NCBI GenBank assembly: GCA_903857795.1 | Contig: CAIOGM010000159.1 | Coordinates: 5,458-69,457 of the forward strand | Reading direction: 5' to 3' | Length of the DNA: 64,000 bases | From: an uncultured Geobacter sp. | GTDB taxonomy: Bacteria > Desulfobacterota > Desulfuromonadia > Geobacterales > CAIOGM01 | Program-made: the position numbers and the translations under genes | Notes under the pieces: model-generated | The model's input: the letters and a program-made list of their open reading frames with translations, nothing else | The model's database searches: none | What the model was told of the DNA's origin: nothing | Shown here: positions 31,088 through 53,905 of the stretch, piece after piece | How the letters are laid out: every line of letters starts with the position of its first letter | Position numbering within the stretch: the first letter of the stretch is position 1

Positions 31088-32620
31088 TCAGCTCTCCCGC
31101 GTCTGCTGGCGTTGTTCGCTGAGCAGGGGGATCCCCAGTTTTTTCATCCGGAAGAAGAGGGTGTTGGGGTTGAGTCCGAGGATGCGGGCGGCCCCTTTTT
31201 CGCCGTGTACCCGCCAGTTGGTTCCCCCCAGTACGGCGGTGATATGCTGCTGTTCCACCTCCTGCAGCGACAGGGTCAACGGATCCTGACGGCGCTGCGG
31301 CCCCTCTGGCAGGATGACCTGGAGGGTGTCGCCGCTGCTGAAAATCAGGGAGTGTTCGATGCAGTTGCGGAGTTCCCGGATGTTGCCGGGCCACGGGTAG
31401 CGTTGCAGCGCCTCCATGTCGCGGGGATTGATCTTGCAGACGGTGCGCCCCATCTTTTCTCCCACGGTTCTGACGAAGAAGCACACCAGTAGGGGGATGT
31501 CTTCACTCCGTTCCCGCAGCAGGGGGAGTTTGATGGGAAAGACGTTGAGCCGATAGAAGAGATCCTCGCGGAACCGCCCCTGACGGACCTCCTGGGCCAG
31601 GTCACGATTGGTGGCGGCGATGACCCGAACATCGGTTTGGTGGGTCTTCGGGCTGCCGAGCCGCTCGAACTGCCCCTCCTGCAGGACGCGCAGCAGCTTT
31701 GCCTGGGCGATGAGGGGGAGCTCCCCCACTTCGTCGAGAAAGAGGGTGGAGCCATCGGCCAGTTCAAAATGACCGATCTGCTGGGCGACCGCACCGGTAA
31801 AGGCCCCCTTCTCCCGACCGAACAGCTCGCTCTCCAGCAGGTTTTCCGGAATGGCCGCACAGTTTATCTTGTGCATCACCCGCTCGCTTCGCCTGCTGTT
31901 CCGGTGGATGCAGTTGGCTATCAACTCCTTGCCGGTGCCGGTCTCCCCCTGGATGAGCACCGTGCTGTCGGTGGGGGCTACCCGCTCGGCCAGCATGAGC
32001 ACCCTGTTGAGCGCCTCGCTGGCGCCGATGATCATCCCCGGGTCCATGTGGGTCAGGACTTCGGCGCGGAGATGGATGTTTTCCGTTTCAAGATTCTGTT
32101 TGAGCCGGGTGATCTCGTCCAGTTGCCGCTGTAGCTGCTCCGTCTGGAGCTGGACCTGTAGCGTAAGGCGGCTGTTCCAGTGGGCCAGCTCATCGTTCTG
32201 CTCTTTGATGGTGGCGGCGAGTCGCCGGTTCTCCCGTGTGAGGCTGTAGCTCTGCAGGGTGTCGCGGACGATGAGGAGGATGTCGTGGTCTTCCCACGGC
32301 TTGCAGATGATCCTGCTCACCCCTCCCTGATTGACGGCGCCCATGGTGCTCTGGAGGTCGGCATAACCGGTCAGGAGGATCCGGGGGGTCTGGGGGGTGA
32401 TGGCCGCCGCCGCTGACAGAAATGCCGTGCCGGTCATTTCCGGCATCCGCTGGTCGCTGAGAATCAGACCGAAGTTCCCCCCGGCCTGGAGGATGGCCAG
32501 CCCCTCCGTACCCGAGGTGGTCGTCACTACCCGGAACGACTCCTTCCTGAAGAGGCGCTTCAACGCCTTGAGAATGTCTTCCTCGTCATCCACGCAGAGG
32601 ACGGTGAGCGGTTCGTCCAT
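31088..32620 (-). CDS. Sigma-54-dependent response regulator (REC, coiled coil, AAA+ with GAFTGA, Fis-type HTH)
   Basis: It has Walker A GETGTGKE, GAFTGA (EKGAFTGA), WPGNIRELRN and a C-terminal HTH. The receiver belongs to the same paralogue family as the two small regulators. A GGAG RBS favours the Met at 32620, although the track ORF starts at 32659. Confidence 0.9.
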   Translation of the reverse strand: MDEPLTVLCVDDEEDILKALKRLFRKESFRVVTTTSGTEGLAILQAGGNFGLILSDQRMPEMTGTAFLSAAAAITPQTPRILLTGYADLQSTMGAVNQGGVSRIICKPWEDHDILLIVRDTLQSYSLTRENRRLAATIKEQNDELAHWNSRLTLQVQLQTEQLQRQLDEITRLKQNLETENIHLRAEVLTHMDPGMIIGASEALNRVLMLAERVAPTDSTVLIQGETGTGKELIANCIHRNSRRSERVMHKINCAAIPENLLESELFGREKGAFTGAVAQQIGHFELADGSTLFLDEVGELPLIAQAKLLRVLQEGQFERLGSPKTHQTDVRVIAATNRDLAQEVRQGRFREDLFYRLNVFPIKLPLLRERSEDIPLLVCFFVRTVGEKMGRTVCKINPRDMEALQRYPWPGNIRELRNCIEHSLIFSSGDTLQVILPEGPQRRQDPLTLSLQEVEQQHITAVLGGTNWRVHGEKGAARILGLNPNTLFFRMKKLGIPLLSEQRQQTRES

Positions 32621-32723
32621 GGGGGAATTCTCCGGCTGGCAGGTGGGGTAGGGTAACATGAGAGATTGGGTACGGGTATTTCACGGATGTATGCAGTACC
32701 CGGAGACGTACTGTAGCACATAG

Positions 32724-32783: not shown

Positions 32784-33395
32784 TCAGTCGCTCCAGAGGA
32801 TGGTCTGGGAGGTTACGTCGAGTTGGTGCCTGAACCGTCCGAGGAAGTTCATGCCGAGCCATCCATCGAAGGGGAGTGGCGGTCCGGTCACCGGGAGGAT
32901 GCCGACGTCGATGTCGTGGAGGGTCTTCGGGCCGACGGTGAGGGTCTCCAGGGTCGTCTGTCGGGACGGAACGTTCCTCCCGTCGGCCACTTGGGTCAAT
33001 CCCCGGGTGATCTCCTCCGCCGGTATGCCGAGCCTCTCCGCAAGGCTCTCGGAGATGATCGTGATCGAGGCGCCCGTGTCCAGGAGGAAGCGGCAGTTCA
33101 CGGTTCTGCCGCGATGGCTGGCGGTCACCGCCAGGTAGACCCTGTTGTCGGATACCGTTACGCTGCTGCTCGTGGCTCTCGGCTCACGACCTTCGGCAGT
33201 CGTCCGCACTCGTGTCCGGCTACGGTAGCGGTCGGGAATCTTCCCCGCTTCATCCACGAAGACCAGCGTGCCGTCACTGTCGGTATAGTGAAAACAGTCG
33301 GCGACAGCCGACCCGCCATGGGACAGGTTCGGCAGCGAAAGCATGCTAACCAGCTGTATGGCTGCGGCGTACTGCAGTACCGGTATCATGCTCAT
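32784..33395 (-). CDS. Secreted retropepsin-like (clan AA, TIGR02281-type) aspartic protease, copy A
   Basis: 203 aa with an N-terminal hydrophobic signal or anchor. A DUF4124-like segment (FHYTDSDGTLVFVDEAGKIP) is followed by the single catalytic motif FLLDTGAS and the C-terminal LGMNFL motif. The start overlaps the stop of the upstream giant gene (ATGA). Confidence 0.75.
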   Translation of the reverse strand: MSMIPVLQYAAAIQLVSMLSLPNLSHGGSAVADCFHYTDSDGTLVFVDEAGKIPDRYRSRTRVRTTAEGREPRATSSSVTVSDNRVYLAVTASHRGRTVNCRFLLDTGASITIISESLAERLGIPAEEITRGLTQVADGRNVPSRQTTLETLTVGPKTLHDIDVGILPVTGPPLPFDGWLGMNFLGRFRHQLDVTSQTILWSD

Positions 33396-36300
33396 CTCTC
33401 CTGGACGTGGACGATCTTTTTTACCGGACGGTTACCGCTGCGGGTGATGAGAAGCGGCGAGTCGCCCGGCGGTTTACCCTGCAGGGCCGTACCGATCCGC
33501 CGCTCTTCCTTGTCGGTGAATATGGAGACGTTCTGGCCGGGACTCCCCGAACTGAGATTGATCTGTTCGAACGCTCCGGTGGACATCTGTATCAGGGCTT
33601 TCCCCTGAAGTGACCCGGGGGGGATCTGGTATCCGGTGTTGTAGGCCACTCCCCAGAGATAGGATGTCCCCCCGAAGCCGCAGATGTCGGCGGTGGGTTT
33701 GAACGAGGTAAAAAATACCTGACCATTGGTCAACGCTACCGTGTTGGTGACGATCCGTTCCGCGCCGGTGGTGGATGCCGCCGGATCAAGATTGATATAC
33801 CACCCTTTATCGGTCCCCACCGTCAATGCACTGGTCGCGCCGGTTGACTGATTGGTCAGGTTACTGAACGTAAGGGGGGTATCCTCGCAGGTATCACTGC
33901 TGTTTTTAAGATCATTGGCCGCTGAATAACAGGGTTCCTTGATGCCGAAGATGCCCCTCTGGCCGCTGCTATCATCCACCCCGGTGGCGCCGGAACGGTA
34001 GAAATAACGTCCGGTCCCGAAATAGAGCCAGAGATTTTCATTGTCCTTATTCCGGTTCTGAAGTCGCGCCATGGCCGTGGTCACCGGCCCGATACCGCTG
34101 ATAACCTTGCTGAGCTTCCAGGTGGTTGGATCGATATTTTCATAGGTCATCAGCCGCAGCACCCCGCCGTCGGTCCAACTGTAGGACCCCGAGGAACCGG
34201 CTCTCGCCACGTAACCAAAATAGAGGGCGTCATCCTGGTAATTACCGGGCGAGGAGGAATTCCAGCGGTCCGAGTCGATGGGGCCGCCACTCAACGAACC
34301 CCCGAAACCGTTGGCAATGGTTGAATTGTCTTTCAGAGTGCTGATGGTGGTCACCAGGGTTCCGCTCTCCGCGTCAAGAACAAAAACCTTCAGCGGTTTG
34401 TCTGATTTTCCCATGAACTGGTGATTGGTGGTGTCGATAGGGCCGGTGGGGCCTGAGACGAAGACGGCAAACCACCTGCCGTTCTTGGTTTTGTCGCCGA
34501 CTCTGAGGATCGCCGGACCGTTCATGCTGTAGCCGAGATCAGGGTCGGAGAATTCCCACTTCAACTTAGGGGCTGTCGGATCGGTAACGTCCAGGGCGAA
34601 GTAGGTGGAGTAGCCCAGCCCTTTGGTCCCATCGGCGGGGTCGGTCCGGGGGGTCTTGACGCAATCGGTACAACTGTCACCGGTGATTCGTGTCGCCCCG
34701 CCGAGTCCCATGCCGCCGATGAGGATGCTCTTCCAACTGGCGGCGGTTCTGGTGCAATCCCAGTAGTCGGTGCTCGTGCAGGCGGTAGCCTTGGCGCTGC
34801 TGATGTCGGCGATGACCGGGGTGGCGTCCACGTAATACAGGTGGTTGTACGCCGGGTCGGCGAGGTACTTGAGATAGGGGAGGGCCTGTTTCGGGATGAA
34901 CGCCCACTGCTCCGTCCCCAGGTTGGCGCCACTCAGGGTCGCCTTCACGGCGCCGTGCTGGGTGACATCCATTGTCCCGAGTTTGAAGGCATGGAGCATA
35001 CCGTCATTGGCGCCGGCGAACACCATCCCGCGATTCTTGTAGCTGCTGGTCGAGAAGAACGAGGTATAGGTTGAATCGTTATATCCTGCCGGTTTGAGCA
35101 GATGGTAATTGTTGACCGGCAAACCCGATTCAATTTTGGGCGTCGAGGAGACAATATCTCCCAGTTTCCAGACGTTGGCCTGAGTGCCGATGTAGGCGTT
35201 GCGGCTCCGGTAGCCGGTTTTATCCGTCCCCAGGAGATAATTGATGATGTCCGAGGCCTCGGCGCCGCTGGCGGCCTGCAGATATGACTGGATTTTGGTG
35301 TTATTGGCGGCGGTGAACCCCATGAAGCCGTTGGTGCAGGTCGCGGTGGGGAGACAACTGGTGTACACGGTGCGGTCTGCCGGGGCGGTGGACCAGAGGA
35401 GCGCTCCTGCCCGCCAGAGGGCCTGAACATCCTCAGGGTAGGCGAAACCGTCGGAACTGTCACCGACACCGTCACCGTTGGTGTCCTTGATAAATTCAAC
35501 CTTGGTCTGATTCACACTGGGATTACTGTCAAAAAAGAAGCGGACGATCCGGTCCGTGGCCAGATTCAAGAGATGGCTTCCCGAAGTATATCCCGTGTCT
35601 TCCCGGATGGTGCTGTTGCCGATGAACGGATCGATATAGTACCAGAGGTTCAGCAACTCTCCGCTCCAGGTCACCGTGGAGGTGGTACTGCTGCCGAAGA
35701 TCTTGGAGGGGTAAAAGATTGCCTGGATAAGGTTGGCGCCGGTCCCTTCGCTGTTGCTGAGAATCGAGGCGGCAGTACCCGAGGCGACCCTCTTGAGAAT
35801 GTCGGTTAACGCCTTGTTCAGCTGCTGTTCCATCTGCAAGGGGTTGGAGATCAGATAATAGGTATCCGGGTCACCGCTGTTTTGGGAATCCCATTCATGG
35901 CACCCGCTTGCCGGAGTCGCGGTTCCGCAACTGCTGTCGGTATAAGGAACTCCGTCGCCGTTGATATCGTTGAATGCCCCATACTTGGCGGCGAACCAGA
36001 GGGGATTCTTGGGGAGTGTCCCTCCTGTGCCGTCGGGAGTGAAGATCATGGCGCGGGTTTCAGGGAGTTGCCTGATGGTCGCACTCTGGGAGCAGTAGCC
36101 GTGTTCGGTATAGTGTAAGGGGGTGCAATCAGTCGGATTGTTCCATTTTCTGACAGGGAGATACAGCCCATCGGTTGTCGTCCCCGCCACCACGAAGCCG
36201 ATGGCCGCATCATTGCCGGCGGAAGAGTATTTGGACTCCACTGTTACCCTGACCCTGCCGTTGGGCACATCCGGACAATGTCCCGCTGAGCATTCCGTTG

Positions 36301-38575
36301 ACGTGCAATAGTTGTAATTGTTGGTTCCACAGCTCTTCCGGGGACAACTTGCCCCCTCACAGACCTCATATTCCGCCAGGGTATCCATGTCGTAGTCCCC
36401 CCCGCCGATGTCGTCGGAACTGATCCTGAACCGGACATATTTCATCAATCCCGTCGCGGTATCGTACAGCGGATCGCCGAGGATATAGTAACTCACCATC
36501 TGTAAGCGTGGGCAGGCGCCGGTGGACGTCCCGGACGGAGTAAGAACCAGCCCTTTTGAGGGAGTATTGACCGAGGTATCCGGTTGCGTAGTCGGCGAGA
36601 GAGACTGGGTGTACTGACCGGAGCAGTTCCAGGTGATGCCGTTTACCGTGCCGTTTGCCATGGATTGTCCGGTGGGAATAATCGTCATCGTGCTGGATCC
36701 GGCCTTGATTTTCAGCTCCGGGACGTACGAGGGGAACGGGAGGGAATAGAACGTCACATTGGGCTTGCCGGGAAGTTCCGTCGAGATCTTGGTATGGCCG
36801 TAAAAGGCCATGGCTGCCGGCGAAAAACTCCCCTGCTCGTCCGGTTCGGCAGGGCATAAGCCCCGGCTGCTCCCCAGCTTGCCGGTACTGCTGAAGGTTT
36901 TTTTCGTGCAGAAGGTGTCGGAATTGACCCCCTTGACCTCTCCGATCATGGCGGTTGTCAACGCTTCATTGGTTCCGATGGTGTTGGTGAGGGCCTTGAC
37001 ATTGAGGTGTGGCAGGTCGTTGGTCGTAGTGGCGGCGATTGTGCCGAAATCCGAGCCGGGAATCTGGTCGGAGTCGTAACTGTTGTAAATGTCACTGAAG
37101 AGGAGCACGAACGGCTTTGAACATGAAGGGAAATTTGTCAGAGGAGTATCCCAGGAGGGAGCGGGCAGATTGAGGTCGTTATCGTTGCCCAGCGTGCTGC
37201 TTCCGGTCGACCCATTGGTGATTCCTGTTGAGAAGGCCGTGGTGGCGCTCCCTAACCCGACAATGTAGCGCAGCGACTCGTAGATGATTTCACCCATGGG
37301 GTTCCCCCAGTGAGTCGGCAGGGGGTAGCTCAAGGGGCAGCGGAAGTTTTCCAGAGTTCCGATGATATTCCCCTTGGCATTGAGGGTGTTGTCGAAGAGT
37401 CCGGTGGAGTTGTTGATCTCATCGAGCACGCTGCTGATCTGTTTCCGCAGGACACCGCCTGCCTGCGGGTTTTTGTACGAGCCGGTGAGCAGGCCAAAGT
37501 ACATGCTGGAACGGTCAAGACAGACGCCAATCGCCGTGCCGCCGTTGTTGGCGGCGTTACAGTCGGTATCGGAAGTGCAGCTTTTATTCAACGTCTTTGA
37601 ACAGACTTTTGTCCCGTCGGATGTGCCGAATTTTTGCAGGATCCCCACTGGTTTGTAGTTTGCCCCGTACTGTTGGCATTTACCCGGCACCGGCTCAAGG
37701 TAGCTGCTATCGCATACCTTGACACTGACCTCATAGTCAACGCTGGAAAAAGTTACCGATTCGGCCACCCCGTCGTTGTTATTGTCGATCTTGTTGGTGG
37801 CGCAGATGGTGTCGGCGCCGTCCACTGATGCCCAGTGCCAGGGGCGCAAGGGGAATATCGCGTTACCGTTTGAGACATCGGCAGTGGTTATCGTGCCGGG
37901 ATCGGCGACGACTCTGATCAAGCTCCTGGGGGAAGAGCTGCTGTCGTTGGTGGTCACGCAAAACAGGCTTCGTTTCCCGGAAACGGCACTGGGGAACAGC
38001 TTGCGCTGGTCCGCCGGCGCCGGAGTTTTTGCCATATCCTCATACCGGGGATACTCCTTCCCCCAGCTGTGACCGTCGCGAGGGATCTGTTCCCCGCTGA
38101 GGATGGTGCTGGTAGCCGTATCGGTTGTCCTGCTGCCACCATAGAGAACCCGCCGGACAACGTCCATCCGGGTCATGGAGAGCCAGTTGAGAAAATTGCC
38201 GGCCCACTCGCTGCTGGTGCCGGAACAGTATTTGTCGGTGGTGAGGCTGGTCGGAGAAAACAGTTTGTTGGAACTGCTGTAGGTGTAACATTTGTACGGG
38301 TCGAAATAGCCGTAGTAATCGATGCCGTGCTTGTACCCTACGTCCAGTTGCCCGTCATCGTTCAGATCAGAGGCGTCATTGTATGCGGCATAGTACATTT
38401 TATGGTCCTTGCTCATGCTCAGGAGGACCAGCGGCGGGATTGTCTGGGTAATGAACGGCGGTTGTATGCAGTAGTCGTTCATCACCGCCGCCCATGCCGG
38501 TGTGCAATGCACGGCAGCCAACACCACGGTCAGTCCGCACACTATTCTGAAGATCGTCTGCACTCTCTTGTTCAT
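33392..38575 (-). CDS. Giant secreted PilY1/PilC-like protein, copy A (degenerate vWA-like N-domain plus C-terminal beta-propeller)
   Basis: 1727 aa with a signal peptide ending TPAWA. PilY1 N-terminal block: PPLVLLSMSKDHKMYYAAYNDASDLNDDGQLD...YYGYFDPYKCY and GNFLNWLSMTRMDVVRRVLYGG. C-terminal PilY1 hallmarks: VFAGANDGMLHAFKLG, EQWAFIP, ILIGGMGLGG, YFALDVTDP, LWLYFGTGRYF and GERIVTN. It also has a DTNGDGVGD Ca-loop-like motif. Confidence 0.8.
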   Translation of the reverse strand: MNKRVQTIFRIVCGLTVVLAAVHCTPAWAAVMNDYCIQPPFITQTIPPLVLLSMSKDHKMYYAAYNDASDLNDDGQLDVGYKHGIDYYGYFDPYKCYTYSSSNKLFSPTSLTTDKYCSGTSSEWAGNFLNWLSMTRMDVVRRVLYGGSRTTDTATSTILSGEQIPRDGHSWGKEYPRYEDMAKTPAPADQRKLFPSAVSGKRSLFCVTTNDSSSSPRSLIRVVADPGTITTADVSNGNAIFPLRPWHWASVDGADTICATNKIDNNNDGVAESVTFSSVDYEVSVKVCDSSYLEPVPGKCQQYGANYKPVGILQKFGTSDGTKVCSKTLNKSCTSDTDCNAANNGGTAIGVCLDRSSMYFGLLTGSYKNPQAGGVLRKQISSVLDEINNSTGLFDNTLNAKGNIIGTLENFRCPLSYPLPTHWGNPMGEIIYESLRYIVGLGSATTAFSTGITNGSTGSSTLGNDNDLNLPAPSWDTPLTNFPSCSKPFVLLFSDIYNSYDSDQIPGSDFGTIAATTTNDLPHLNVKALTNTIGTNEALTTAMIGEVKGVNSDTFCTKKTFSSTGKLGSSRGLCPAEPDEQGSFSPAAMAFYGHTKISTELPGKPNVTFYSLPFPSYVPELKIKAGSSTMTIIPTGQSMANGTVNGITWNCSGQYTQSLSPTTQPDTSVNTPSKGLVLTPSGTSTGACPRLQMVSYYILGDPLYDTATGLMKYVRFRISSDDIGGGDYDMDTLAEYEVCEGASCPRKSCGTNNYNYCTSTECSAGHCPDVPNGRVRVTVESKYSSAGNDAAIGFVVAGTTTDGLYLPVRKWNNPTDCTPLHYTEHGYCSQSATIRQLPETRAMIFTPDGTGGTLPKNPLWFAAKYGAFNDINGDGVPYTDSSCGTATPASGCHEWDSQNSGDPDTYYLISNPLQMEQQLNKALTDILKRVASGTAASILSNSEGTGANLIQAIFYPSKIFGSSTTSTVTWSGELLNLWYYIDPFIGNSTIREDTGYTSGSHLLNLATDRIVRFFFDSNPSVNQTKVEFIKDTNGDGVGDSSDGFAYPEDVQALWRAGALLWSTAPADRTVYTSCLPTATCTNGFMGFTAANNTKIQSYLQAASGAEASDIINYLLGTDKTGYRSRNAYIGTQANVWKLGDIVSSTPKIESGLPVNNYHLLKPAGYNDSTYTSFFSTSSYKNRGMVFAGANDGMLHAFKLGTMDVTQHGAVKATLSGANLGTEQWAFIPKQALPYLKYLADPAYNHLYYVDATPVIADISSAKATACTSTDYWDCTRTAASWKSILIGGMGLGGATRITGDSCTDCVKTPRTDPADGTKGLGYSTYFALDVTDPTAPKLKWEFSDPDLGYSMNGPAILRVGDKTKNGRWFAVFVSGPTGPIDTTNHQFMGKSDKPLKVFVLDAESGTLVTTISTLKDNSTIANGFGGSLSGGPIDSDRWNSSSPGNYQDDALYFGYVARAGSSGSYSWTDGGVLRLMTYENIDPTTWKLSKVISGIGPVTTAMARLQNRNKDNENLWLYFGTGRYFYRSGATGVDDSSGQRGIFGIKEPCYSAANDLKNSSDTCEDTPLTFSNLTNQSTGATSALTVGTDKGWYINLDPAASTTGAERIVTNTVALTNGQVFFTSFKPTADICGFGGTSYLWGVAYNTGYQIPPGSLQGKALIQMSTGAFEQINLSSGSPGQNVSIFTDKEERRIGTALQGKPPGDSPLLITRSGNRPVKKIVHVQER

Positions 38576-38640
38576 GGGATACCTCTTGGATGATGATTGT
38601 CTTCATGGTGGCCGATTTTTCACTATGCGTGGATCTGTGT

Positions 38641-38673
38641 AATATTTGAATAATTAAAAATTATTCAAATATT
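38641..38673. promoter_or_regulatory. Perfect 15-3-15 palindrome AATATTTGAATAATT-aaa-AATTATTCAAATATT upstream of PilY1-like gene A
   Basis: Both arms were read and reverse-complemented by hand and match exactly. It lies 66-98 nt upstream of the start codon. The sequence is certain; an operator function is inferred. Confidence 0.6.
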
Positions 38674-38679
38674 ATGCCA
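38664..38679 (-). promoter_or_regulatory. Sigma-54-like promoter with a non-canonical -12 element (TGGCAT-N5-TTGAA)
   Basis: The minus strand reads tTGGCATaatatTTGAAt. The GG-N10 spacing is right but the -12 dinucleotide is GA rather than GC. It overlaps the right arm of the palindrome. Confidence 0.3.
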
Positions 38680-38943
38680 AATGTAATTTTGCTATGAAAA
38701 TAACCACCAAAATTCTGGTAATTCTGGAGAAAATGTATAAAAATCAGCCTGTCAGATCGTGTCACCCCCCCCCGGCCAAAATGAGTCGGTCTCGAGCAGT
38801 CCTGGGACGCTCCGGGGTAAACCGGTCATTTCTTGCAGGGTGACACCGCTCTCTGACTCCATGGCTCAACATTCCTGGCAGGGGAGGCCGGGTGATGGTC
38901 AGGGCGCCGGGAGTTGTTGCAGGGGGAAGGGCGGGGGTCGAAG

Positions 38944-38988
38944 GGAGAAAAGCAACGGCGCGCTCCCGAAAAGGGGAGCGCGCCGTTG
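38944..38988 (-). terminator. Strong terminator after protease B, separating the two cassettes
   Basis: A perfect 15-bp stem pairs CAACGGCGCGCTCCC with GGGAGCGCGCCGTTG around a 6-nt loop. CTTTTCTCC follows on the minus strand. Confidence 0.7.
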
Positions 38989-39086
38989 TTGTGGGCGGTA
39001 GAGGGAGGGAGGCGGAGTCACCGCTCCTGGATATGCAGGACTTTTTTTACCTTAGCGCCGTCATTAGTTTGCAGGATGGTTTTTCG

Positions 39087-39698
39087 TCACTCGCTCCAGA
39101 GGATGGTCTGGGTGTTTACGTCGAGCTGGTGCCTGAACTGTCCGAGAAAGTTCATGCCGAGCCACCCCTCGAAGGGGAGTGGCGGGCCGGTCACCCGGAG
39201 GATGCCGACGTCGATGTCGTGGAGTGTCTTCGGGCCGACCGTGAGCGTATCCAGAGTTGTGCGTCGTGATTGAATATTTCTTCCATCGGCTACCCGGGTC
39301 AACCCCTGCGTGGTCTCCTCTGTTGGTATCCCGAGTTTCTCCGCGAGGCTCTCCGAGATGATCGTGACCGAGGCGCCCGTGTCCAGAAGGAACCGGCAGT
39401 TCACGGTTTTGCCGCGATGTCTGACGGTTACCGTCAGATAGACCTTGTTGTCGGACACTATTACTCCGCTGCGCGTGGCTCTTGACTCCGGAGCTTTGTC
39501 GGCCGGTCTCACTGTTGTCCGGCTACGGTAGTGGACGGGAACCTTGCCGGCTTCATCAACGAAGACCAGCGTGCCGTTACTGTCCGTATATTGAAACACT
39601 TCGGCAAAAGCCGACCCGCTAATCAACAGGTTCAGCAGAGAAAGCATGATAACCAACTGCACCGACCTGGTGTACTGGGGAACCGGTATCATTCTCAT
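39087..39698 (-). CDS. Secreted retropepsin-like aspartic protease, copy B
   Basis: 203 aa, about 75 percent identical to copy A by hand count and higher in the C-terminal protease domain. It has the same FLLDTGAS and LGMNFL motifs and the same ATGA overlap with the upstream giant gene. Confidence 0.75.
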   Translation of the reverse strand: MRMIPVPQYTRSVQLVIMLSLLNLLISGSAFAEVFQYTDSNGTLVFVDEAGKVPVHYRSRTTVRPADKAPESRATRSGVIVSDNKVYLTVTVRHRGKTVNCRFLLDTGASVTIISESLAEKLGIPTEETTQGLTRVADGRNIQSRRTTLDTLTVGPKTLHDIDVGILRVTGPPLPFEGWLGMNFLGQFRHQLDVNTQTILWSE

Positions 39699-42600
39699 CT
39701 TTCCTGGATATGAAGGACCTTCTTCACCGGTTGATTCTGGCTTCGATTAATGATGGTCGGCGGGTCGGCGGGTGGTTTCCCTTGCATCGCGGTCCCTGTC
39801 CGACGGCTTTCTCTCGCAGAGAATGGAGTGCTTGACGGGTTGCTCGGATCATTAAACTGAGTTGACTCGAAACTTCCTGTTGACATTTGAATGATGGCCT
39901 TGCCGTACATCGACGCGCTTGATGGCACAAATCCTGTATCGTATTTCAACGCCCACAGGTAGGAATTACCTCCATACGCGCAGATATCCGATGACGGAAG
40001 AAAGGTGGTGAAAAATACCGCTCCTGTGGATAGCGCAACCGGATTGGTGATTACCCTCTCGGCACAGGAACTGCCAGCGGCCGCATCCAAGGTAATGAAC
40101 CAGCCTTTATCCTTGAGGGTGTCCAAGCTGTTTGTGGAGGCAGTTGTATAGCCTACTCCTGATTGGTTGGTTAGTTTTGTGGAGTCAACCGTGGTGGTGC
40201 AGGTAGTGTCTATAGCATTGGCAGAAGTATAGCACGGCTCCTTGATTCCAAAAATGTTGCGCTGAGTGGCGCAATCGTCAAGGTCCCCGGCAGCGGTCGT
40301 CTTGAAATAATAACGACCGGTCCCGAAATAGAGCCAAAAGTGCTTATTTTTACGGTCTTGCAACCGTGCAATGGATGAGGTTACCGGCCCGATACCATCT
40401 ATAACAATACTTGTCACAAAATCGTTCGAGCTTACATTAAATGTCCCTGTCTGAATAGTGGAAGGATCAGCGGTGCTTGGCTTTATCATTACGCGGAGCA
40501 CCCCGCCATCGGTCCAAGTGTCATCCGAAGTATTCTGTTTAACATACCCAATATAGACCACATCGTCCTGGTAGTTTCCGAGTAAGGACAAATTCCACCG
40601 GTCGGCATCCAGGGCGCCTCCTTGGAGTGAACCGGCGAATGCATTAGGAATCCCCGTATTGATCGTCTGAACCAGTGAACCATCCTTGAGATCGACGATG
40701 AACAGCCGCAGGGGTTGATCCGACTTGGCCAGGAACTGGTGTGTCGTCGTGTCAATGGGGCCTGTGGGACCAGAGGCAAACAAGGCTAACCAGCGGCCGT
40801 TCTTATTCCGAGGCCCCACCCTGATGATTGCCGGTCCCGCGGTAGAATACCCTAGCCGGTTATTGGTGAATTCCCAGAGGAGTGCCGGTTGCCCCGGTTT
40901 GGTTATGTCTAGCGCAAAATATGAAGAATATCCCATGCTTACTGAATTGTTAGCCGGGTCAACAATTGGAGTTCTGACACAATTTGTGCATCCCGCAGAA
41001 CTTCTCCTGCTGGCCCCTCCCAAACCCATTCCGCCGATTAAAACGGTCCGCCAGTTGGTTTCGACTGCGAGATCGTTGGGGTTAACGGGATTTACGGCAC
41101 TGCTGCCTACCACTTGACTGCTGTTTTTGCTGCAGTCCCAGTAATGCGTGCAGGTACCCACGGTACCAATGCTGACATCGGCAATGGTGCTGGTCAGGTC
41201 GACGAAATTAAGATGACCATAAGAAGGGTCGGCGAGGTATTTGAGGTACGGAAGGACATTCCGGGGGATATAGGCCCACTGCTCACTTCCCAGATTACTG
41301 CCGCTAAGAGTCGCCTTCTGGGCGCCGCTGGCCGTGACATCGAGCAGCCCGAGTTTGAACGCGTGGAGCATGCCGTCATTGGCGCCAACGAACACAGAAC
41401 CACGGGCCTTGTACTCATTGGAATTGATAAAAGAGTAATACGAGGAGTCATTGTACCCCGACGGAGGCTGCATATGATAGTTGTTCTGAGGTACAGTCGA
41501 GAGGACCCGAGGTGTCGATGTCACAATGTCGCCAAGTTTCCAGACACCACTAGTGCTGCCGATGGTGACGGTGCGGTTGCGCAGCGTGGCGTCACCAGGA
41601 TAATCAATTCCACTGATGTAATTGATCAACTGCTTGGCGCTGGTCACGTCCGACGCCTGAAGATACCGTCGAAGGTCTGTCGCGGTAGCGTCTGAACTGT
41701 CAGCAGTGTCGGTTGGACTGAAAAAGGTGCGCAGTGTGCCGGATGTATTCGTGTAAATGGTACGTTTTTGGGTGTTATCGGTCTGATCGCGCTTCCAGAG
41801 AAGTGTGCCGGCCTTCCAGAGGCTCTTGACGGTTTCGGGATAATCGGTTCTTATCAGGGTCTCGCCGATGCCGTCTCCGTTGGTGTCCTGGAAGAGTTTT
41901 ACCCTGGTAGCCTTCATGGAGGTATCAAAGAAGAAGTTTACAATATAGTCATTGGTCAGGTTCAAGTTATGGGTGGCCGCCCCGGTGGCGTCAGAATAAT
42001 CCGTGTCCTCGCGAATAGAACTGGTGTTAATGTATGGATCGAGGTAGTACCAGAAATTCAGGAGTTCGCCGGTCCAGTTCGCAACCGTATTGTTGGAAAA
42101 GACTTTTTTGGGATAGAAGATCGCCTGGAGAATGACGGCTCCGCTTCCCTCGGCGTTACTCAGAATGGAGGCGGCAGTTCCGGATGAAAGCTGGTTGAGG
42201 ATATTGTTGAAGATATCGATGAGAGAATTGTTGAGCTGTGTCGGGTTGTCCGCATAATAGGCTTGGCCGTTTCTGTCAGTGCCGCCATGGACAGCCATGG
42301 CATCCACGTTTGTCTTGTCGGCAGCTACCAGTCCCACACCCAGAATATAGGACGTTACATCGTAGTTTATAGAATTAACCGTTACATTGCAATTTCCAGA
42401 TCCCCCGTTGGGCGGGCATCGCAGAGCGTCAAGCTTGGTCAGGACCGTAGGCATAAGGTCGGTTGATGCTCCGGTCGCGCCGCTTTCGGTGACACTGGGC
42501 GCTCCGTCGGTAACGTAGATAATGAAATTCTTTTGGCAGGAATACTGGATGGGTGAGGCGAGGGGGGTGGTGCTTCCCTGAACCATGGCGCCTTTGAAGT

Positions 42601-45112
42601 AGTTGAGGGCGCTCTGAAGTGTCCCGGCGGTGGGGGTCAGGCCGGCATTGATGATGTAGCTGCAGGCGTTCGGGTTCGATGTGTTGGTGCATGACATGTA
42701 CCCGGTTTCATCGTTCTGGAAAGCAACCGGCGTCCGATTCCCCCCCAGGGAGGTCAAGAGTGAAGTCAATTGGGTATTCCCAGGGGAGACGTTATCAGCT
42801 ATCGGCACATTCAAATATCCGCCACCAGGCGAACTGTTGGTAAAAAAGGTCTGACTGGTATAATACCAACTATTCCTAACCCCAAAATCGTAGAATCCAA
42901 GAGCATAGTCATCATCTGTGGGAATAAAGCCCTGCGGACCAGTGCATCCGGCGAATCCGGTGGTCGCGTCGTTTGCGCCGGTCTTGCTGGTACAGGTATA
43001 ATAAGAGTCGGTTTGAGCTGGATATTCAGTAGAACTGTACCCGCTTGAGTAGGTATAACTTATTCCATGGTTCGAGCTGTCATAGTACGTCCCCGGCATG
43101 CCATAGTAGGTCGTAGTTCCGTTGGTATCTGTATTCTTGCGCGTCTTCGGGTAGATAAGCGAGCAGTATGTCTTGCGCTTGGCGCTGTTGACCGCAGTTC
43201 CGTTAGACCCTCCCGTACCGCCCGTCGTGGTTATTGCATCCCGGTAATTGACCTGAAATGCCGGATTCCCGGCAGCCACACCCGAAATTCCGTTTTGACA
43301 TGAATTTCTGCAGGCAATTTCAGCGGCGGAAGGGGAATAGGTTCCGGTCTTTGGATCTTCTTGAACACAGTAGTTGGAGCATGACCCGTCCGATGGGGGA
43401 GTCGGGCAGTATGATTTCAGATCGAACGAGTTGAAATACGCGGAATTGTGCAGGAAGTACTTGGATACCGAAGGAAGTTTGTAGCTCATGATGCCGATGC
43501 GCATGATGTTGCCGTAGGCGTTCACGATGGACGTGAGGGCCTGCCGGGCGATGATCGACCTGCTGCAGGTATTGAGATCGTTAGGATCGGTGCACTTTGG
43601 TGAACCGATGGCGTTGTTTTGGAAATCTTCATCCATGCTGTTGGAATTGTCGAGGATGATGAGCACGTTCGGTTTCACGTTGGTACAGACATAGGGCGGC
43701 ACCACCGTGTAGGTATTCAGTGACGCTACCTGGGTGGTGAAGCTGAAACTGTATTGTCCAAGGGCGTTTCCTGCCAGATCCGTAACTCCACTGGTCAGGG
43801 TGACGGTGTAGGGCATGCTGAAGTCGAGACCGGTAGCCGGAGTAAGCGTTAGTTTTTTTGCCGTTGAATCATAGGAAATGCTTGCAGGTATGTTTTGTGA
43901 TCCGTCGGATATGTATACCGTGGCGCTATTCATGGACGAGGCGAGCATATTGTTCAGTTCGGTGAAGTTTATAGTGATAGGCGATGTTATCGAGATGTCC
44001 GAGGTATTATTTGCAGGCGAGGTGCTTGCCACCACGGGGGCTACAGTGTCCAGAATGAATGACCATGAATGGCTCATATCGAGGGCATTCGGGGTGGGGC
44101 TTGCCGCGTCCTTGATGCCGGTGGTCAGGGTGATGTTGTAGGCGCCGTCAGTGAAGGCCGCTGTTGGTGTAAATGACTCGGTATTGGAACCGGCATCGAA
44201 GCTGTAGGCGCCTGCTACCGCGGTTGTAACTTTTTTGACCGAAAAGGTGCTGCTGGTTATAGTTGTCGTAGTGATGGTATCGCTGAAGGTGGCCGTTATG
44301 GCGTTCGGTATGGTATTTAGATAGGCGGTGTTAGGCGAAAACGACACGAGGGTCACTGGCTGGTTGTCGACATTGAACATCCACGTACAAGAGTAGTTGA
44401 CGCAATCAAGTGCGTTGCTGCTCGTATCGGTCAGACCGGCCGTGAGGGTCACTCGGTATGTTTTCAGGGATGCGAGGGCTGATGACGGTGTCACGGTTAC
44501 CGTTTTGTTCGAATTCGACCAGACAGGGGCATTGAGAGGCACCGGGATATTGCCGTCGGTCACATTGATCAGATTAATTGAAGGATTTGAACCTGATACT
44601 GTGGCTGAGCTTGTATTCATGGCTTCGAAAAAGGTTGGTGCAATATTAGGTGAGGTGCTCGATGTTGTTGTCACTAGTGGGACATACGATACCATGTACG
44701 GTGGCTTATAGTCGCGAATGGTAAAAGTAAACGTTGACGGGCCGGTATAAGTACCTGCGGTAGGTGTTGCTTTATCTTTTATGCTTTTTGCACAGGCCGA
44801 GTACTGGGTGCCGGATGACAAGCTCGCGGTTGGTGTGATGGTTATGGTTTTCGCAACGGAATCACAGCCGATACTTACCGACCCGAAGACCGTCCCTCCG
44901 CTGCAACTGGAACCGCTGGTTATAAAGATATTGGTTCCGCTCGCACTAGTGCAGTCAAGTGCGGTTGCAGAGGTAAAGCTCACTGTATGTGGACCAAGCT
45001 CATTCACTCCAGTGGTTGTATTTGGTGTCCAGACCGGCGAAGATGGCGCCCCTAAAGCTGTACCGGAATGAAAAAAGAACAGACAGCCGACTGCCAGCAG
45101 TATTCGTTTCAT
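39695..45112 (-). CDS. Giant secreted PilY1/PilC-like protein, copy B (about 5 SbsA/Big-type Ig-like repeats, vWA with an intact MIDAS, beta-propeller)
   Basis: 1805 aa with a signal peptide ending TALGAPS. Residues ~25-460 hold repeated Ig-like units (for example TVTPSSALASLKTYRVTLTAGLTDTSSNAL). KPNVLIILDNSNSMDED is a DxSxS MIDAS at residues 488-492. PilY1 hallmarks are VFVGANDGMLHAFKLG, EQWAYIP, LIGGMGLGG, YFALDITKP, FWLYFGTGRYY and AERVITN. Confidence 0.8.
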   Translation of the reverse strand: MKRILLAVGCLFFFHSGTALGAPSSPVWTPNTTTGVNELGPHTVSFTSATALDCTSASGTNIFITSGSSCSGGTVFGSVSIGCDSVAKTITITPTASLSSGTQYSACAKSIKDKATPTAGTYTGPSTFTFTIRDYKPPYMVSYVPLVTTTSSTSPNIAPTFFEAMNTSSATVSGSNPSINLINVTDGNIPVPLNAPVWSNSNKTVTVTPSSALASLKTYRVTLTAGLTDTSSNALDCVNYSCTWMFNVDNQPVTLVSFSPNTAYLNTIPNAITATFSDTITTTTITSSTFSVKKVTTAVAGAYSFDAGSNTESFTPTAAFTDGAYNITLTTGIKDAASPTPNALDMSHSWSFILDTVAPVVASTSPANNTSDISITSPITINFTELNNMLASSMNSATVYISDGSQNIPASISYDSTAKKLTLTPATGLDFSMPYTVTLTSGVTDLAGNALGQYSFSFTTQVASLNTYTVVPPYVCTNVKPNVLIILDNSNSMDEDFQNNAIGSPKCTDPNDLNTCSRSIIARQALTSIVNAYGNIMRIGIMSYKLPSVSKYFLHNSAYFNSFDLKSYCPTPPSDGSCSNYCVQEDPKTGTYSPSAAEIACRNSCQNGISGVAAGNPAFQVNYRDAITTTGGTGGSNGTAVNSAKRKTYCSLIYPKTRKNTDTNGTTTYYGMPGTYYDSSNHGISYTYSSGYSSTEYPAQTDSYYTCTSKTGANDATTGFAGCTGPQGFIPTDDDYALGFYDFGVRNSWYYTSQTFFTNSSPGGGYLNVPIADNVSPGNTQLTSLLTSLGGNRTPVAFQNDETGYMSCTNTSNPNACSYIINAGLTPTAGTLQSALNYFKGAMVQGSTTPLASPIQYSCQKNFIIYVTDGAPSVTESGATGASTDLMPTVLTKLDALRCPPNGGSGNCNVTVNSINYDVTSYILGVGLVAADKTNVDAMAVHGGTDRNGQAYYADNPTQLNNSLIDIFNNILNQLSSGTAASILSNAEGSGAVILQAIFYPKKVFSNNTVANWTGELLNFWYYLDPYINTSSIREDTDYSDATGAATHNLNLTNDYIVNFFFDTSMKATRVKLFQDTNGDGIGETLIRTDYPETVKSLWKAGTLLWKRDQTDNTQKRTIYTNTSGTLRTFFSPTDTADSSDATATDLRRYLQASDVTSAKQLINYISGIDYPGDATLRNRTVTIGSTSGVWKLGDIVTSTPRVLSTVPQNNYHMQPPSGYNDSSYYSFINSNEYKARGSVFVGANDGMLHAFKLGLLDVTASGAQKATLSGSNLGSEQWAYIPRNVLPYLKYLADPSYGHLNFVDLTSTIADVSIGTVGTCTHYWDCSKNSSQVVGSSAVNPVNPNDLAVETNWRTVLIGGMGLGGASRRSSAGCTNCVRTPIVDPANNSVSMGYSSYFALDITKPGQPALLWEFTNNRLGYSTAGPAIIRVGPRNKNGRWLALFASGPTGPIDTTTHQFLAKSDQPLRLFIVDLKDGSLVQTINTGIPNAFAGSLQGGALDADRWNLSLLGNYQDDVVYIGYVKQNTSDDTWTDGGVLRVMIKPSTADPSTIQTGTFNVSSNDFVTSIVIDGIGPVTSSIARLQDRKNKHFWLYFGTGRYYFKTTAAGDLDDCATQRNIFGIKEPCYTSANAIDTTCTTTVDSTKLTNQSGVGYTTASTNSLDTLKDKGWFITLDAAAGSSCAERVITNPVALSTGAVFFTTFLPSSDICAYGGNSYLWALKYDTGFVPSSASMYGKAIIQMSTGSFESTQFNDPSNPSSTPFSARESRRTGTAMQGKPPADPPTIINRSQNQPVKKVLHIQER

Positions 45113-45465
45113 CGCCCTACCTCCAGCACATCAATCTCGACGACCAAGCCCTTGATGGTTGTTATCCTGACTGGTGTCTTTTCGGGGAGCTTTGAGACAT
45201 CGATCCTTTTTCCGTTGTACTCCACGGTAACGGCAGATTGAATCCGATAGAATCTGACTCCGCCCTGTTCTGACAACAACAGAACAAATGTGGCTCCATT
45301 ACGGATTCCTCCAAAAAAACCGTTACTTATTTCCCCCTGGTCTGTATGGCTCAGTGCGCCTGAAGTTGCCGGAGTCATCCCTATGGCAAACATCGGACAG
45401 GCTGCCACCAAGCAAGAGGTAATGATTGCGGCTCTAACGAGTTGAGTTATCGAAATAGATGCCAT
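45109..45465 (-). CDS. Small secreted protein of unknown function, first gene of cassette B
   Basis: 118 aa from the Met at 45465, preceded by an AAAGGAG RBS. A signal-like segment (AAIITSCLVAACPMFAIG) precedes a beta-rich C-terminus. Its stop overlaps the giant gene start (ATGA). The longer track ORF would overlap the kinase gene. Confidence 0.6.
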   Translation of the reverse strand: MASISITQLVRAAIITSCLVAACPMFAIGMTPATSGALSHTDQGEISNGFFGGIRNGATFVLLLSEQGGVRFYRIQSAVTVEYNGKRIDVSKLPEKTPVRITTIKGLVVEIDVLEVGR

Positions 45466-45489
45466 GCCGGATACTCCTTTATTATTGCT

Positions 45490-45505
45490 TGCAAGTGGAC
45501 AGCCT
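45490..45505 (-). promoter_or_regulatory. Candidate sigma-54 promoter (AGGCTG-N5-TTGCA) overlapping the kinase stop codon
   Basis: The minus strand reads tAGGCTGtccacTTGCAag with exact GG-N10-GC spacing. The predicted transcript would begin just upstream of the Shine-Dalgarno of the small ORF. Confidence 0.4.
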
Positions 45506-47750: not shown

Positions 47751-47776
47751 GAAGGTACATCTCCTTGCTGGGTGGT

Positions 47777-47792
47777 ATTCAATATCCGTGCC
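47777..47792 (-). promoter_or_regulatory. Sigma-54-like element (GGCAC-N-TTGAAT) upstream of the CHASE4 kinase gene
   Basis: The minus strand reads cGGCACggataTTGAATac. It has GG-N10-GA, the same deviant TTGAAT -12 element as at 38664-38679. Confidence 0.3.
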
Positions 47793-47897
47793 GATTCGCA
47801 GCCGTTGCGAATTATTTCGAATTTAGTGCTACTCGCCGGTAATTGCAGGTGATAATGACGGACTCGGCGTAGATGAATCTTGGGCAGTTCTTTCTGT

Positions 47898-47927
47898 TTG
47901 TAACATTCTGTCGATTTATCGTATGAT
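47898..47927 (+). promoter_or_regulatory. Candidate sigma-70 promoter for the divergent activator gene (TTGTAA-N18-TATGAT)
   Basis: Read directly, about 50 nt upstream of the ATG at 47979. Confidence 0.35.
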
Positions 47928-47978
47928 ATGGTCACTTTTTGCGGGGCGGAAGTTACTCAAGAAACAGGAGGTGATCTC

Positions 47979-49397
47979 ATGACCGGCGTCAGGGTGCTCA
48001 TCTGCGACGACGAAGAGGAGTCTCTGGCCCTCTTCTCCCGGATGCTCGGTAACGAGGGGATGGCGGTGGAGTGCTTCGCCTCCGGGGAAAAGCTGATACA
48101 GCGGCTCAGGGATGGGGGGGATGCTGCGCTTCTTCTGCTGGATGTCCGGATGCCGGAGGTGAGCGGCCTGCAGCTGCTGGAACAGCTCCGGCAGCTGCGA
48201 CCGGAGCTGCAGATCATCATGATGACGGCGTTCGGCACCATCGATGACGCGGTGAAGGCGATCCGGCTGGGCGCCTATGACTTTATCACCAAGCCGTGCC
48301 CGCGGGCCAAGCTCCTGGTGAGCATCAGGCACGCCCTGGAGAACGATTTTCTGAGACGGGAAAACCGGGAACTTCGCAGTCAGCTGAAGAGTCCGGACGC
48401 TGCGGGGGCCATCGTCTTCCGGAGTGAGCGGTTTCGCGAGATTCATGACCTGGCCCTCAAGGTTGCCGGCAGCAGCGCCAATATCGTCATCCTGGGTGAG
48501 TCGGGGACCGGCAAGGAGCTCATCGCCCGGGTCATCCATCGGCAGAGTCCCCGCAGCAACCGTCCCTTCTTATCCATCAACTGCGCCGCCTTTTCCGAAT
48601 CGCTCCTGGAGAGCCAGCTCTTCGGCCATCTCCGGGGGGCGTTTACCGGCGCCGTCGCCAGCCACAAGGGGTTTCTGGAGGAGGCCGATGGCGGGACGCT
48701 CTTTCTCGACGAGATCGCCGACATGGCCCCGGCGATCCAGGCCAAGGTCCTGAGGGCCATTCAGGAGGGGGAGTTCTTTCCGGTGGGGGCCGGCAACTCC
48801 CGGCGGGTGGATGTCCGCTTCGTCGCGGCCACCAACCGGGAGCTGGAGCGGGAGGTCGCCGCCGGGCGGTTCCGTGAAGATCTCTTCTTCCGGCTCAGTG
48901 TCATAACTCTGAAGCTCCCCCCCTTGAGGGAACGGCGGGACGACATCGAACCGCTGACCGACTATTACCTTGCCCTGTTCAACAGCCAGATGAAGAAGAG
49001 GGTCACTGGAATCTCCACCGAGGCGCGGCGGCTGCTCATCGCCTACTCCTGGCCAGGCAATGTCCGGGAGCTGAGGAATATCATGGAGCGGGCGATCATC
49101 CTGGCGGAGGGGTGCGAGATAACGCCGGAGAGCCTGCCCCTCACCCTGAGCGACGGTGTGTCGGGGCCCCGGGCCGTCGTGGGGAGCCTGGAGAGCTCCC
49201 TGGAACAGCTGGAGAGGGAGCATATCGCCTGTATCCTGGAGGCCACGGGAGGGCACAAGAGCCGCAGCGCCGCGATCCTCGGCGTCTGCCGCAGAACCCT
49301 GGACCGCAAGATGGAAGCGTACGGCCTGGGAGAGCCGGCGCCGCGCGGCCGGCCGCCGAATCAGAAACGGCAGGGGGGTAACCGACATGATCCATGA
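47979..49397 (+). CDS. Sigma-54-dependent response regulator (NtrC family)
   Basis: A strong RBS (ACAGGAGGTG) precedes the ATG at 47979 (MTGVRVLICDDEEE). It has the receiver motif LLLDVRMPEVSG, Walker A GESGTGKE, GAFTGA, WPGNVRELRN and a C-terminal Fis-type HTH. Confidence 0.9.
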   Translation: MTGVRVLICDDEEESLALFSRMLGNEGMAVECFASGEKLIQRLRDGGDAALLLLDVRMPEVSGLQLLEQLRQLRPELQIIMMTAFGTIDDAVKAIRLGAYDFITKPCPRAKLLVSIRHALENDFLRRENRELRSQLKSPDAAGAIVFRSERFREIHDLALKVAGSSANIVILGESGTGKELIARVIHRQSPRSNRPFLSINCAAFSESLLESQLFGHLRGAFTGAVASHKGFLEEADGGTLFLDEIADMAPAIQAKVLRAIQEGEFFPVGAGNSRRVDVRFVAATNRELEREVAAGRFREDLFFRLSVITLKLPPLRERRDDIEPLTDYYLALFNSQMKKRVTGISTEARRLLIAYSWPGNVRELRNIMERAIILAEGCEITPESLPLTLSDGVSGPRAVVGSLESSLEQLEREHIACILEATGGHKSRSAAILGVCRRTLDRKMEAYGLGEPAPRGRPPNQKRQGGNRHDP

Positions 49398-53390: not shown

Positions 53391-53419
53391 TTGACGTCCG
53401 CGGTTGGCTAATCTATAGT
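53391..53419 (+). promoter_or_regulatory. Sigma-70 promoter for fur-feoB (TTGACG-N17-TATAGT)
   Basis: Read directly, with an exact 17-nt spacer. Confidence 0.55.
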
Positions 53420-53433: not shown

Positions 53434-53447
53434 ATAACGGGGGCGGC

Positions 53448-53879: not shown

Positions 53880-53905
53880 TCTTTAAACCGTTTGAAGGGA
53901 GTTAC

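Follow-up and report, generated by a model that had tools for sequence, protein, structure and literature searches.

A perfect AT-rich palindrome over an atypical -24/-12-type promoter of a PilY1-like gene in an uncultured Geobacter: a possible operator

Sigma-54 promoters are normally silent without an activator, partly through the C at position -12. What, then, is the role of a long perfect palindrome that lies directly over a promoter of this type in which the C is missing? The question is raised by the DNA upstream of PilY1-like gene A (1727 aa, 33392-38575, minus strand), the first gene of a cassette (cassette A) on contig CAIOGM010000159.1 of an uncultured Geobacter sp. (assembly GCA_903857795.1). 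We analyzed a 64,000-nt stretch of this contig (positions 5,458 to 69,457), hereafter referred to as the window, in whose numbering all coordinates are given. We propose, tentatively and with somewhat less than even confidence, that the palindrome is an operator placed over a leak-prone sigma-54 core promoter and gated by a symmetric protein.

Direct sequence inspection revealed a perfect inverted repeat, TAATATTTGAATAATT-aaa-AATTATTCAAATATTA, at 38640-38674 (no strand assigned), 65-99 bp upstream of the gene A start codon. An earlier reading, made from the letters of the DNA alone (the sequence-only reading), had described an exact, AT-only 15-3-15 repeat of very unlikely chance origin. The symmetry is indeed perfect, but the arms are 16 bp long (16-3-16) and the repeat is not AT-only: each arm contains one G or C, leaving 33 of the 35 bases as A/T. 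That chance is a very unlikely origin was borne out. An arm of 16 bp was never reached when the 161-bp AT island that contains the repeat (30% GC) was shuffled 20,000 times with its dinucleotides preserved (longest arm 14 bp), and with loops of up to 10 nt allowed, the repeat is the longest perfect one of the entire window. The other window inverted repeats with arms of at least 11 bp (n = 4) are all GC-rich and terminator-like. We conclude that the palindrome is non-random. It is also not an assembly artefact, because an identical copy is present in L002, an ENA contig that was assembled independently from a different sample.

A dispersed repeat of the REP or MITE type was considered and rejected, as neither the window nor the 108 loci that were fetched yielded extra copies, with the exception of L002, which derives from the same strain, and of ten low-GC matches in metagenomes. 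These ten were retrieved with the palindrome core, TTTGAATAATT-N3-AATTATTCAAA, from JGI metagenomes, where all of them lie on contigs of unrelated organisms with 18-39% GC and no high-GC match was obtained. The core had no match in viral contigs, and the AT island had none in plasmids. An intrinsic terminator was rejected on account of a stem that is 94% A/T and is not followed by a T-run at the end of either strand. A tRNA in the palindrome region was likewise rejected, and no Rfam covariance model for a known RNA family reached its gathering score (best E-value 2.2).

Cassette A needs a promoter of its own, because the preceding cassette B is closed by a strong intrinsic terminator, a 15-bp GC-rich stem followed by CTTTTCTCCC (38953-38988, minus strand). 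A -24/-12-type element, TGGCATAATATTTGAATA (TGGCAT-N5-TTGAATA, 38662-38679, minus strand), is found at the palindrome. The GG dinucleotide of sigma-54 promoters is present within TGGCAT (38679-38674; GG at 38678-38677, that is -25/-24), and the 10-nt spacing and the G at -13 are kept, but the GC at -13/-12 is replaced by GA (TTGAA; 38666-38665). The sequence-only reading had noticed this overlap of one arm with a -24/-12-like element (TGGCAT AATAT TTGAA, 38679-38664, minus strand), as well as the correct spacing and the GA, and all of this can be seen in the sequence. The spacer and the -12 part (TTGAATA) of the element are the upstream arm of the palindrome. With GG set as -25/-24, this arm (38674-38659) covers -21 to -6, the loop -5 to -3 and the downstream arm (38655-38640) -2 to +14. 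The dyad centre is therefore near -4, halfway along the segment that has to melt, within a span of about -21 to +14, and from -11 to +14 the DNA consists of A/T except for a single G at about +6. We infer that transcription depends on sigma-54, and the -12 position predicts a start at 38653 (plus or minus 2 nt, minus strand), which would give a leader of about 77 nt. A gap of 6 nt separates the ribosome-binding site AAGAGG (38582-38587, minus strand) from the ATG at 38575. As one arm is accounted for by the promoter element itself, it is the exact mirror image downstream that calls for an explanation.

Is the A at -12 a defect? The window contains two copies, and no more, of the pattern GGCA-N6-TTGAAT, where 0.04 would be expected. 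Both are on the minus strand, one directly upstream of cassette A and the other directly upstream of the operon of a CHASE4 hybrid histidine kinase (47792-47777). The kinase copy is part of a sister promoter of the same class, cGGCACGGATATTGAATA (47776-47793, minus strand), 27-43 nt upstream of the kinase ATG (47750). This promoter is conserved at two orthologous loci, as CGGCATGCTTTTTGAGTA in L100 (kinase 66% identical) and as AGGAACGATTCTTGACTA in L107 (kinase 47% identical). A three-way alignment of the intergenic regions between the kinase and its divergent activator yielded only two conserved blocks, one of them being this element (GG.A.G..T.TTGA.TA). A crude weighted -24/-12 score was uninformative alone, since values of at least 15 are reached about once per 550 positions, and a pattern built solely from the three orthologous kinase promoters, with cassette A left out (GGnAnnnnnnTTGAnTA), was used instead. 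It matched the window twice (0.18 expected), at the kinase source site and at the cassette A site, and the match on the coding strand of the cassette A intergenic region was significant by dinucleotide shuffling (P = 0.002). We conclude that the GG-N10-GA element belongs to a locus-specific promoter class with TTGAnTA at -15 to -9 and is probably not a defective sigma-54 site; the A at -12 is a conserved idiosyncrasy of this class and not a defect. A class of sigma-54 promoters with a conserved A at this position is uncommon, as about 4% of the promoters known are without the C, but it is not unprecedented.

Two activators that could serve such promoters flank the PilY1-like cassettes. EBP1, an NtrC-type sigma-54 activator with a receiver, an AAA+ domain with GAFTGA and a Fis-type helix-turn-helix (HTH), is encoded directly downstream of cassette A (31088-32659, minus strand). 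EBP2, a further sigma-54 activator with GAFTGA (47928-49397, plus strand), is divergent from the kinase operon and has orthologues in L100 (78% identical) and L107 (64% identical). The loop that contacts sigma-54 is kept as GAFTGA or GSFTGA in EBP1, EBP2 and both EBP2 orthologues. Given the recurrence of the class pattern, the conserved kinase sites, these activators and the canonical relatives of the element, we think it fairly likely that cassette A is transcribed from a sigma-54 promoter.

Some of the same bases can be read as an extended -10 promoter for sigma-70 (TTCATA, 16 nt, TGgCATAAT; 38698-38671), in which case the palindrome would be an ordinary operator at about -3 to +30 and the likeness to a -24/-12 element would be coincidental. 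A consensus scan found four sigma-70-like sites in 1 kb, where 0.8 are expected, and one of these is TG-extended and uses the same TGGCAT bases. Moreover, the A at -12 departs from a C that 96% of sigma-54 promoters share and that holds down basal, activator-independent transcription (PMC4551910). However, only 4 of 6 positions match in the -35 element, two sigma-54 activators flank the cassettes, and the element fits a pattern that was derived independently, is phylogenetically conserved and has sister sites for which a sigma-70 promoter is impossible. TTGA is 29-34 nt from the start codon in each of the three kinase promoters; a reading of TTGA as a sigma-70 -35 element is therefore impossible there, and only the geometry of a -12 element fits, which gives leaders of 17-22 nt. 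We consider a sigma-70 promoter for cassette A improbable.

If the element is a sigma-54 promoter, the dyad lies where an operator would be expected, over the core promoter and the start site. The sequence-only reading had suggested a repressor or architectural-protein site that gates cassette A; the position makes this plausible, whereas a second copy, conservation, an adjacent repressor and a match to a known motif are all lacking. In the mechanism that we favor, a symmetric DNA-binding protein, either a dimer or a pair of dimers, would occupy the palindrome, the Fis-type HTH of EBP1 being one candidate. The bound protein would exclude the sigma-54 holoenzyme or lock it in place. It would thereby gate a promoter for which leakiness is expected, given that the C at -12, the normal brake on basal transcription, is missing. 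An NtrC-type activator would turn the promoter on across the curved region of phased A/T tracts upstream. Both the binding of a protein to the palindrome and the direction of this regulation are what we infer from the arrangement of the locus.

Several observations weigh against an operator. The palindrome is present once in the 64 kb, and a search of the window for the half-site with up to 3 mismatches returned the two arms only and no second copy. At the locus of the closest gene A orthologue (L001), neither the AT island nor the palindrome is present, and DNA homology to this locus extends only from 38595, at the ribosome-binding site, to 33399. The sole other copy, in L002, belongs to the same strain and provides no evidence of purifying selection. 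Pfam scans of the neighborhood detected kinases, receivers and the two activators and no stand-alone DNA-binding repressor adjoining cassette A, and the published delta-proteobacterial motifs for Fur, Zur, PerR, NikR and ModE (PMC545781) do not match the palindrome. Perfect symmetry over 16 bp per arm exceeds what a typical HTH dimer needs and fits a recent origin at the DNA level or a structural role equally well. Furthermore, the kinase promoters of the class have no palindrome over them, either in the window or in the orthologues. The promoter itself is affected as well: about 15 -24/-12-like elements upstream of PilY1-homologue operons in other relatives all carry GC at -12, and therefore promoters with GA may be weak.

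Fur was evaluated as a specific candidate and rejected. Both the 7-1-7 form (TGAnAAT-n-ATTnTCA) and the 19-bp form (GATAATGATnATCATTATC) fail on the palindrome, in which 11 nt separate TGAAT from ATTCA, as against 5 nt between the corresponding pentamers, TGAAA and TTTCA, of the Fur box that the window itself contains. That box, a perfect 7-1-7 repeat (TGAAAATCATTTTCA), is situated just upstream of fur in an iron and nitrogen regulatory cluster (53418-59055) that also comprises feoB, glnB-glnA and the gene for a DtxR-like regulator in which a FeoA domain is present. Both this regulator and Fur are encoded 15-18 kb from cassette A, and the motifs of both misfit the palindrome.

Palindromes of comparable type are scarce in related genomes. 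A survey of 1.22 Mb of related loci turned up only three perfect palindromes with arms of at least 12 bp and less than 25% G+C, namely a pair of inferred activator enhancers and a third palindrome directly upstream of the fur-feoB operon of locus L020. Such AT-rich perfect palindromes in related genomes thus tend toward positions where protein sites are expected. The L020 palindrome (13065-13101) is a perfect AT-rich 15-7-15 repeat, AGTTTAATTGAAATT-N7-AATTTCAATTAAACT, 8 bp upstream of fur-feoB and divergent from argG.

Alternatively, the palindrome could act as DNA without a dedicated protein, either by easing the melting of the promoter or by extruding a cruciform under negative supercoiling and thereby switching the promoter off. 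All 16 positions of each arm have a partner, a feature that is relevant to a hairpin or cruciform but not to a typical operator, and the computed hairpin of single-stranded DNA has a free energy of -11.4 kcal/mol (z = -6.6). The stretch from -11 to +14 is A/T but for its single G, and our window searches found no regulator gene or second site. In vivo bypass of the activator has been argued to need a non-consensus -12 position plus local DNA that is prone to opening (PMC4551910), and both are present in the cassette A promoter. On the other hand, easy melting calls for AT-richness and not for symmetry, extrusion of a 35-bp repeat as a cruciform is usually rare in vivo, and comparative support is absent. 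Downstream of -12, the sister kinase promoters of this class are rich in GC, and a palindrome is missing from them. A purely structural role is therefore one that we regard as distinctly unlikely.

The symmetry might also be used at the level of RNA, with a 16-bp A-U hairpin in the 5' leader affecting mRNA stability, processing or translation. The RNA from 38700 to 38576 is indeed predicted to fold with the hairpin intact (-22.8 kcal/mol, z = -3.3). This possibility is disfavored because every predicted start, whether for sigma-54 or for sigma-70, falls inside the palindrome. In addition, there is no Rfam match, the hairpin is not followed by a U-tract and hence is no terminator or attenuator, and at 65 nt from the start codon it leaves the ribosome-binding site untouched. 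We consider an RNA element highly improbable.

A further alternative follows from the history of the locus, which is a mosaic. In L001, the gene A orthologue (81% identical protein) is located 22 bp behind a paralogous CHASE4 kinase gene, and in both L001 and L108 the kinase is followed directly by gene A. L100 and L101 instead contain the divergent activator, the kinase, a small ORF, a B-type PilY1 gene and a protease, followed by a convergent arginine decarboxylase gene, and are without cassette A. Proteases A and B of the window are 75% identical to each other and 58-62% identical to that of L100, and they look like intragenomic duplicates. Because the gene orders of the orthologues differ, homology ends at the ribosome-binding site and proteases A and B are mutually closest, we conclude that gene A has been grafted behind cassette B in the lineage of the window. 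The AT island is lineage-specific junction DNA; in blastn searches against all fetched loci, its sole match was L002.

Under these circumstances, the palindrome could be a neutral by-product, a young inverted duplication of the -12 region that arose during the grafting of gene A, through template switching or a repair event templated by a hairpin, and that supplies nothing but AT-rich promoter DNA. The AT island starts where the homology of the orthologous gene module stops (38595); the mosaic gene orders and the close similarity of the two proteases point in the same direction. The promoter element fully explains one arm, of which the other may be a copy, and the perfection of the repeat suggests youth. 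Conservation and a second copy are missing. Against this stand the regulatory positions of the only three palindromes of this type in the 1.22 Mb of related loci and the exact placement over -21 to +14, which would have to be a coincidence. A palindrome at the start site is also unlikely to be neutral for expression. We regard a neutral origin as unlikely, although it retains appreciable weight, and we keep the operator as our tentative explanation.

The modular nature of the PilY1-like cassettes is evident beyond gene A. They have been reshuffled across the region 33392-45465 and its counterparts in L001, L100, L101, L104, L105 and L108, and gene A together with its ribosome-binding site forms a discrete unit that is found behind different kinases. 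L104 and L105 are deletion variants with a CHASE4 stub, a 159-aa ORF and a protease, the ORF possibly being a putative PilY1 remnant. Among the roughly 80 GTDB species-representative matches listed, a PilY1-like gene was paired with a retropepsin-like protease only in L053, where the protease match is weak (about 30% identical) and on the opposite strand; the best PilY1 match among those listed was 50%.

How could an activator reach the cassette A promoter? The intergenic region between the terminator-closed cassette B and gene A measures 377 bp, and its promoter-proximal 160 bp are the AT island (38600-38760), which the sequence-only reading had delimited and which we could confirm. The direct repeat that it had listed, two copies of AATTCTGG, was verified at 38711-38718 and 38720-38727; it forms a tandem with a period of 9 (AATTCTGG-t-AATTCTGG, 38711-38727, no strand) inside a region of six A/T tracts spaced 9.5-13 bp apart (phasing about 10.5 bp; 38685-38743, no strand, about -33 to -91). 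The phased tracts are likely intrinsically curved DNA. No IHF consensus with up to 1 mismatch was found in the whole cassette A intergenic region, which fits intrinsic curvature standing in for IHF. Further upstream, the dyad motif GGTGWCACC (no strand) is present at 38758-38766 (1 mismatch) and 38839-38847 (exact), corresponding to about -105 and -190, and a third copy is found at 39014-39022. Of the 32 matches that the window contains, three fall within 265 bp upstream of cassette A, and we consider these motifs weak, post hoc candidates for enhancer sites. The PilR-like enhancer of canonical loci is absent from the window. A C9 homopolymer (38765-38773), flanked by the candidate enhancer motifs on one side and the AT island on the other, is 7 nt long in L002 (GGAGGGG, minus strand). 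It was considered as a phase-variation element and rejected, because G/C runs of at least 7 are common in the window (27 runs).

For EBP2, a conserved candidate enhancer exists on the kinase side. The second block of the three-way alignment, AAATCGACAGAATGTTACAAA (core GACArrATGTwrCAAAC; 47896-47917, minus strand; about 1843-1863 in L100 and about 1773-1792 in L107), precedes the kinase promoter by about 130-150 bp in all three lineages. The three EBP2 orthologues hardly differ in their HTH regions, which makes this block a good candidate for an EBP2 enhancer. It is absent upstream of cassette A, and homology between the cassette A upstream region and the kinase intergenic regions or L100 was not significant. 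A perfect 7-5-7 inverted repeat (ATTCGCA-acggc-TGCGAAT, 47794-47812) is located one base upstream of the GG of the kinase -24 element and is not conserved in L100 or L107.

The kinase, a small ORF, both PilY1-like cassettes and EBP1 are all encoded on the minus strand. In the order of transcription, the CHASE4 hybrid histidine kinase (45504-47750) comes first and is followed by the 118-aa ORF, PilY1-like gene B with Big_5 repeats (39695-45112) and retropepsin-like protease B (39087-39698), which precedes the terminator at 38988-38953. Behind gene A, the gene for retropepsin-like aspartyl protease A (32784-33395) overlaps the gene A stop codon. Cassette B is probably co-transcribed with the kinase. 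A canonical-looking sequence just past the kinase stop codon, AGGCTGTCCACTTGCA (45487-45502, minus strand), was considered as a sigma-54 promoter for cassette B and rejected; it is not conserved in L100 and L101, in which homology starts just after it, and its resemblance is therefore probably due to chance. Gene B has an atypically low GC content (51-53%) and a low third-position GC relative to its neighbors, which suggests foreign origin or unusual constraints.

Canonical sigma-54 sites were also observed elsewhere in the window. The glnB-glnA operon lies behind TGGCAATGAAATTGCT (57128-57143), and the gene for a PAS/GAF hybrid kinase (14440-17259), one of three very large hybrid kinases encoded in a row (10755-21195), is preceded at a distance of 88 bp by a canonical sigma-54-like site, TGGCACACTAGTTGCG (17347-17362, minus strand). 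The stretch that separates EBP2 from the fur cluster contains a gene for a lone Card1-like endonuclease-domain protein (49641-50810, 389 aa) and a YoeB-family toxin gene (51411-51665).

In the boldest interpretation, which we regard as speculative and rather unlikely, the locus would reveal a natural sigma-54 subclass with A at -12 (TTGAnTA) that has long been kept at a CHASE4 kinase/PilY1-like adhesin operon. At cassette A, this subclass would have been fused to a palindrome over the melting bubble, giving a switch that is sensitive to supercoiling or bypasses the activator, or placing a direct repressor where it compensates for the missing lock at -12. A conserved natural class without the -12 C would provide a ready system for studying the control of basal leakage in vivo and for asking whether enhancer-dependent promoters can take on direct repression or DNA structure as a further layer. 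It also bears on the separate regulation of two alternative PilY1-like surface proteins in one bacterium. If the palindrome is a neutral scar, the finding shrinks to the annotation of one more ordinary promoter in a Geobacter-like bacterium known only from uncultured material.

Compared with known sigma-54 promoters, the cassette A element has GG and G spaced exactly as at -24 and -13, GAFTGA activators are encoded alongside, and curved or AT-rich DNA is found upstream. The general sigma-54 consensus is mrNrYTGGCACG-N4-TTGCWNNw, and that of Geobacter sulfurreducens is TTGGCACGGTTTTTGCT (PMC2725144); the element agrees with the Geobacter consensus in TTGGCA and TTTG and at 11 of 17 positions. 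It differs from such promoters in the A that replaces C at -12, which is kept in the sister kinase promoter across three lineages, in being embedded in a perfect palindrome, and in that no verified enhancer was found.

With Fur-family operators, such as the window's Fur box and the L020 site, the palindrome shares a perfect AT-rich dyad, TGAA/TTCA cores and a position at a promoter. The window Fur box is 7-1-7 with cores 6 bp closer, and the classic 19-bp Fur box as well as the published Zur, PerR and NikR motifs mismatch (PMC545781). In the L020 palindrome upstream of fur-feoB, the geometry TTGAA-N13-TTCAA is the same as in the window palindrome, which could reflect a shared regulator family or chance (about 1-3%).

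Distant PilY1 homologues are found in type IV pilus loci with the order prepilin peptidase, kinase, activator, pilin-like gene, PilY1, minor pilins and PilMNOPQ. In the canonical type IV pilus loci of relatives, the PilY1-homologue operons follow an activator gene, an enhancer palindrome and a canonical -24/-12 promoter, with the lineage-specific palindrome 60-90 bp upstream of the promoter. Examples are GCTATGCAAAaTTTGCATAGC in Geobacter-like contigs (L093, 7804-7824; L094, 7812-7834; L096, about 6970) and TATGTAATnnATTACATA in Nitrospirota/Thermodesulfovibrionia (L004, L007 at 5501-5526, L016, L023, L036 and L055). These enhancers resemble the cassette A palindrome in being long, often perfect and partly AT-rich and in belonging to the control region of the same gene family. 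In contrast to it, they are located 60-90 bp upstream of -24 and not over the promoter, their sequences are unrelated, and none occurs in the window.

An engineered E. coli promoter was reportedly driven by a supercoil-induced cruciform (Horwitz and Loeb, 1988), and there, too, a perfect palindrome extends across the region that must melt. That promoter was an artificial sigma-70 construct, whereas extrusion at cassette A is putative. The closest precedents in enhancer-dependent circuits are dyads that overlap promoters, namely the NtrC sites over glnAp1 and glnL and the FlbD ftr sites over fliF. As in these systems, the cassette A dyad lies over a core promoter, and the locus encodes NtrC-family proteins with a Fis-type HTH. 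The NtrC and FlbD sites repress promoters of the sigma-70 type, whereas the promoter of cassette A is of the sigma-54 type, its arms are perfect over 16 bp and binding is putative. Repressor sites directly over sigma-54 core promoters are, to our knowledge, rare. The placement of the palindrome on the cassette A promoter is a variant of known promoter/operator architecture.

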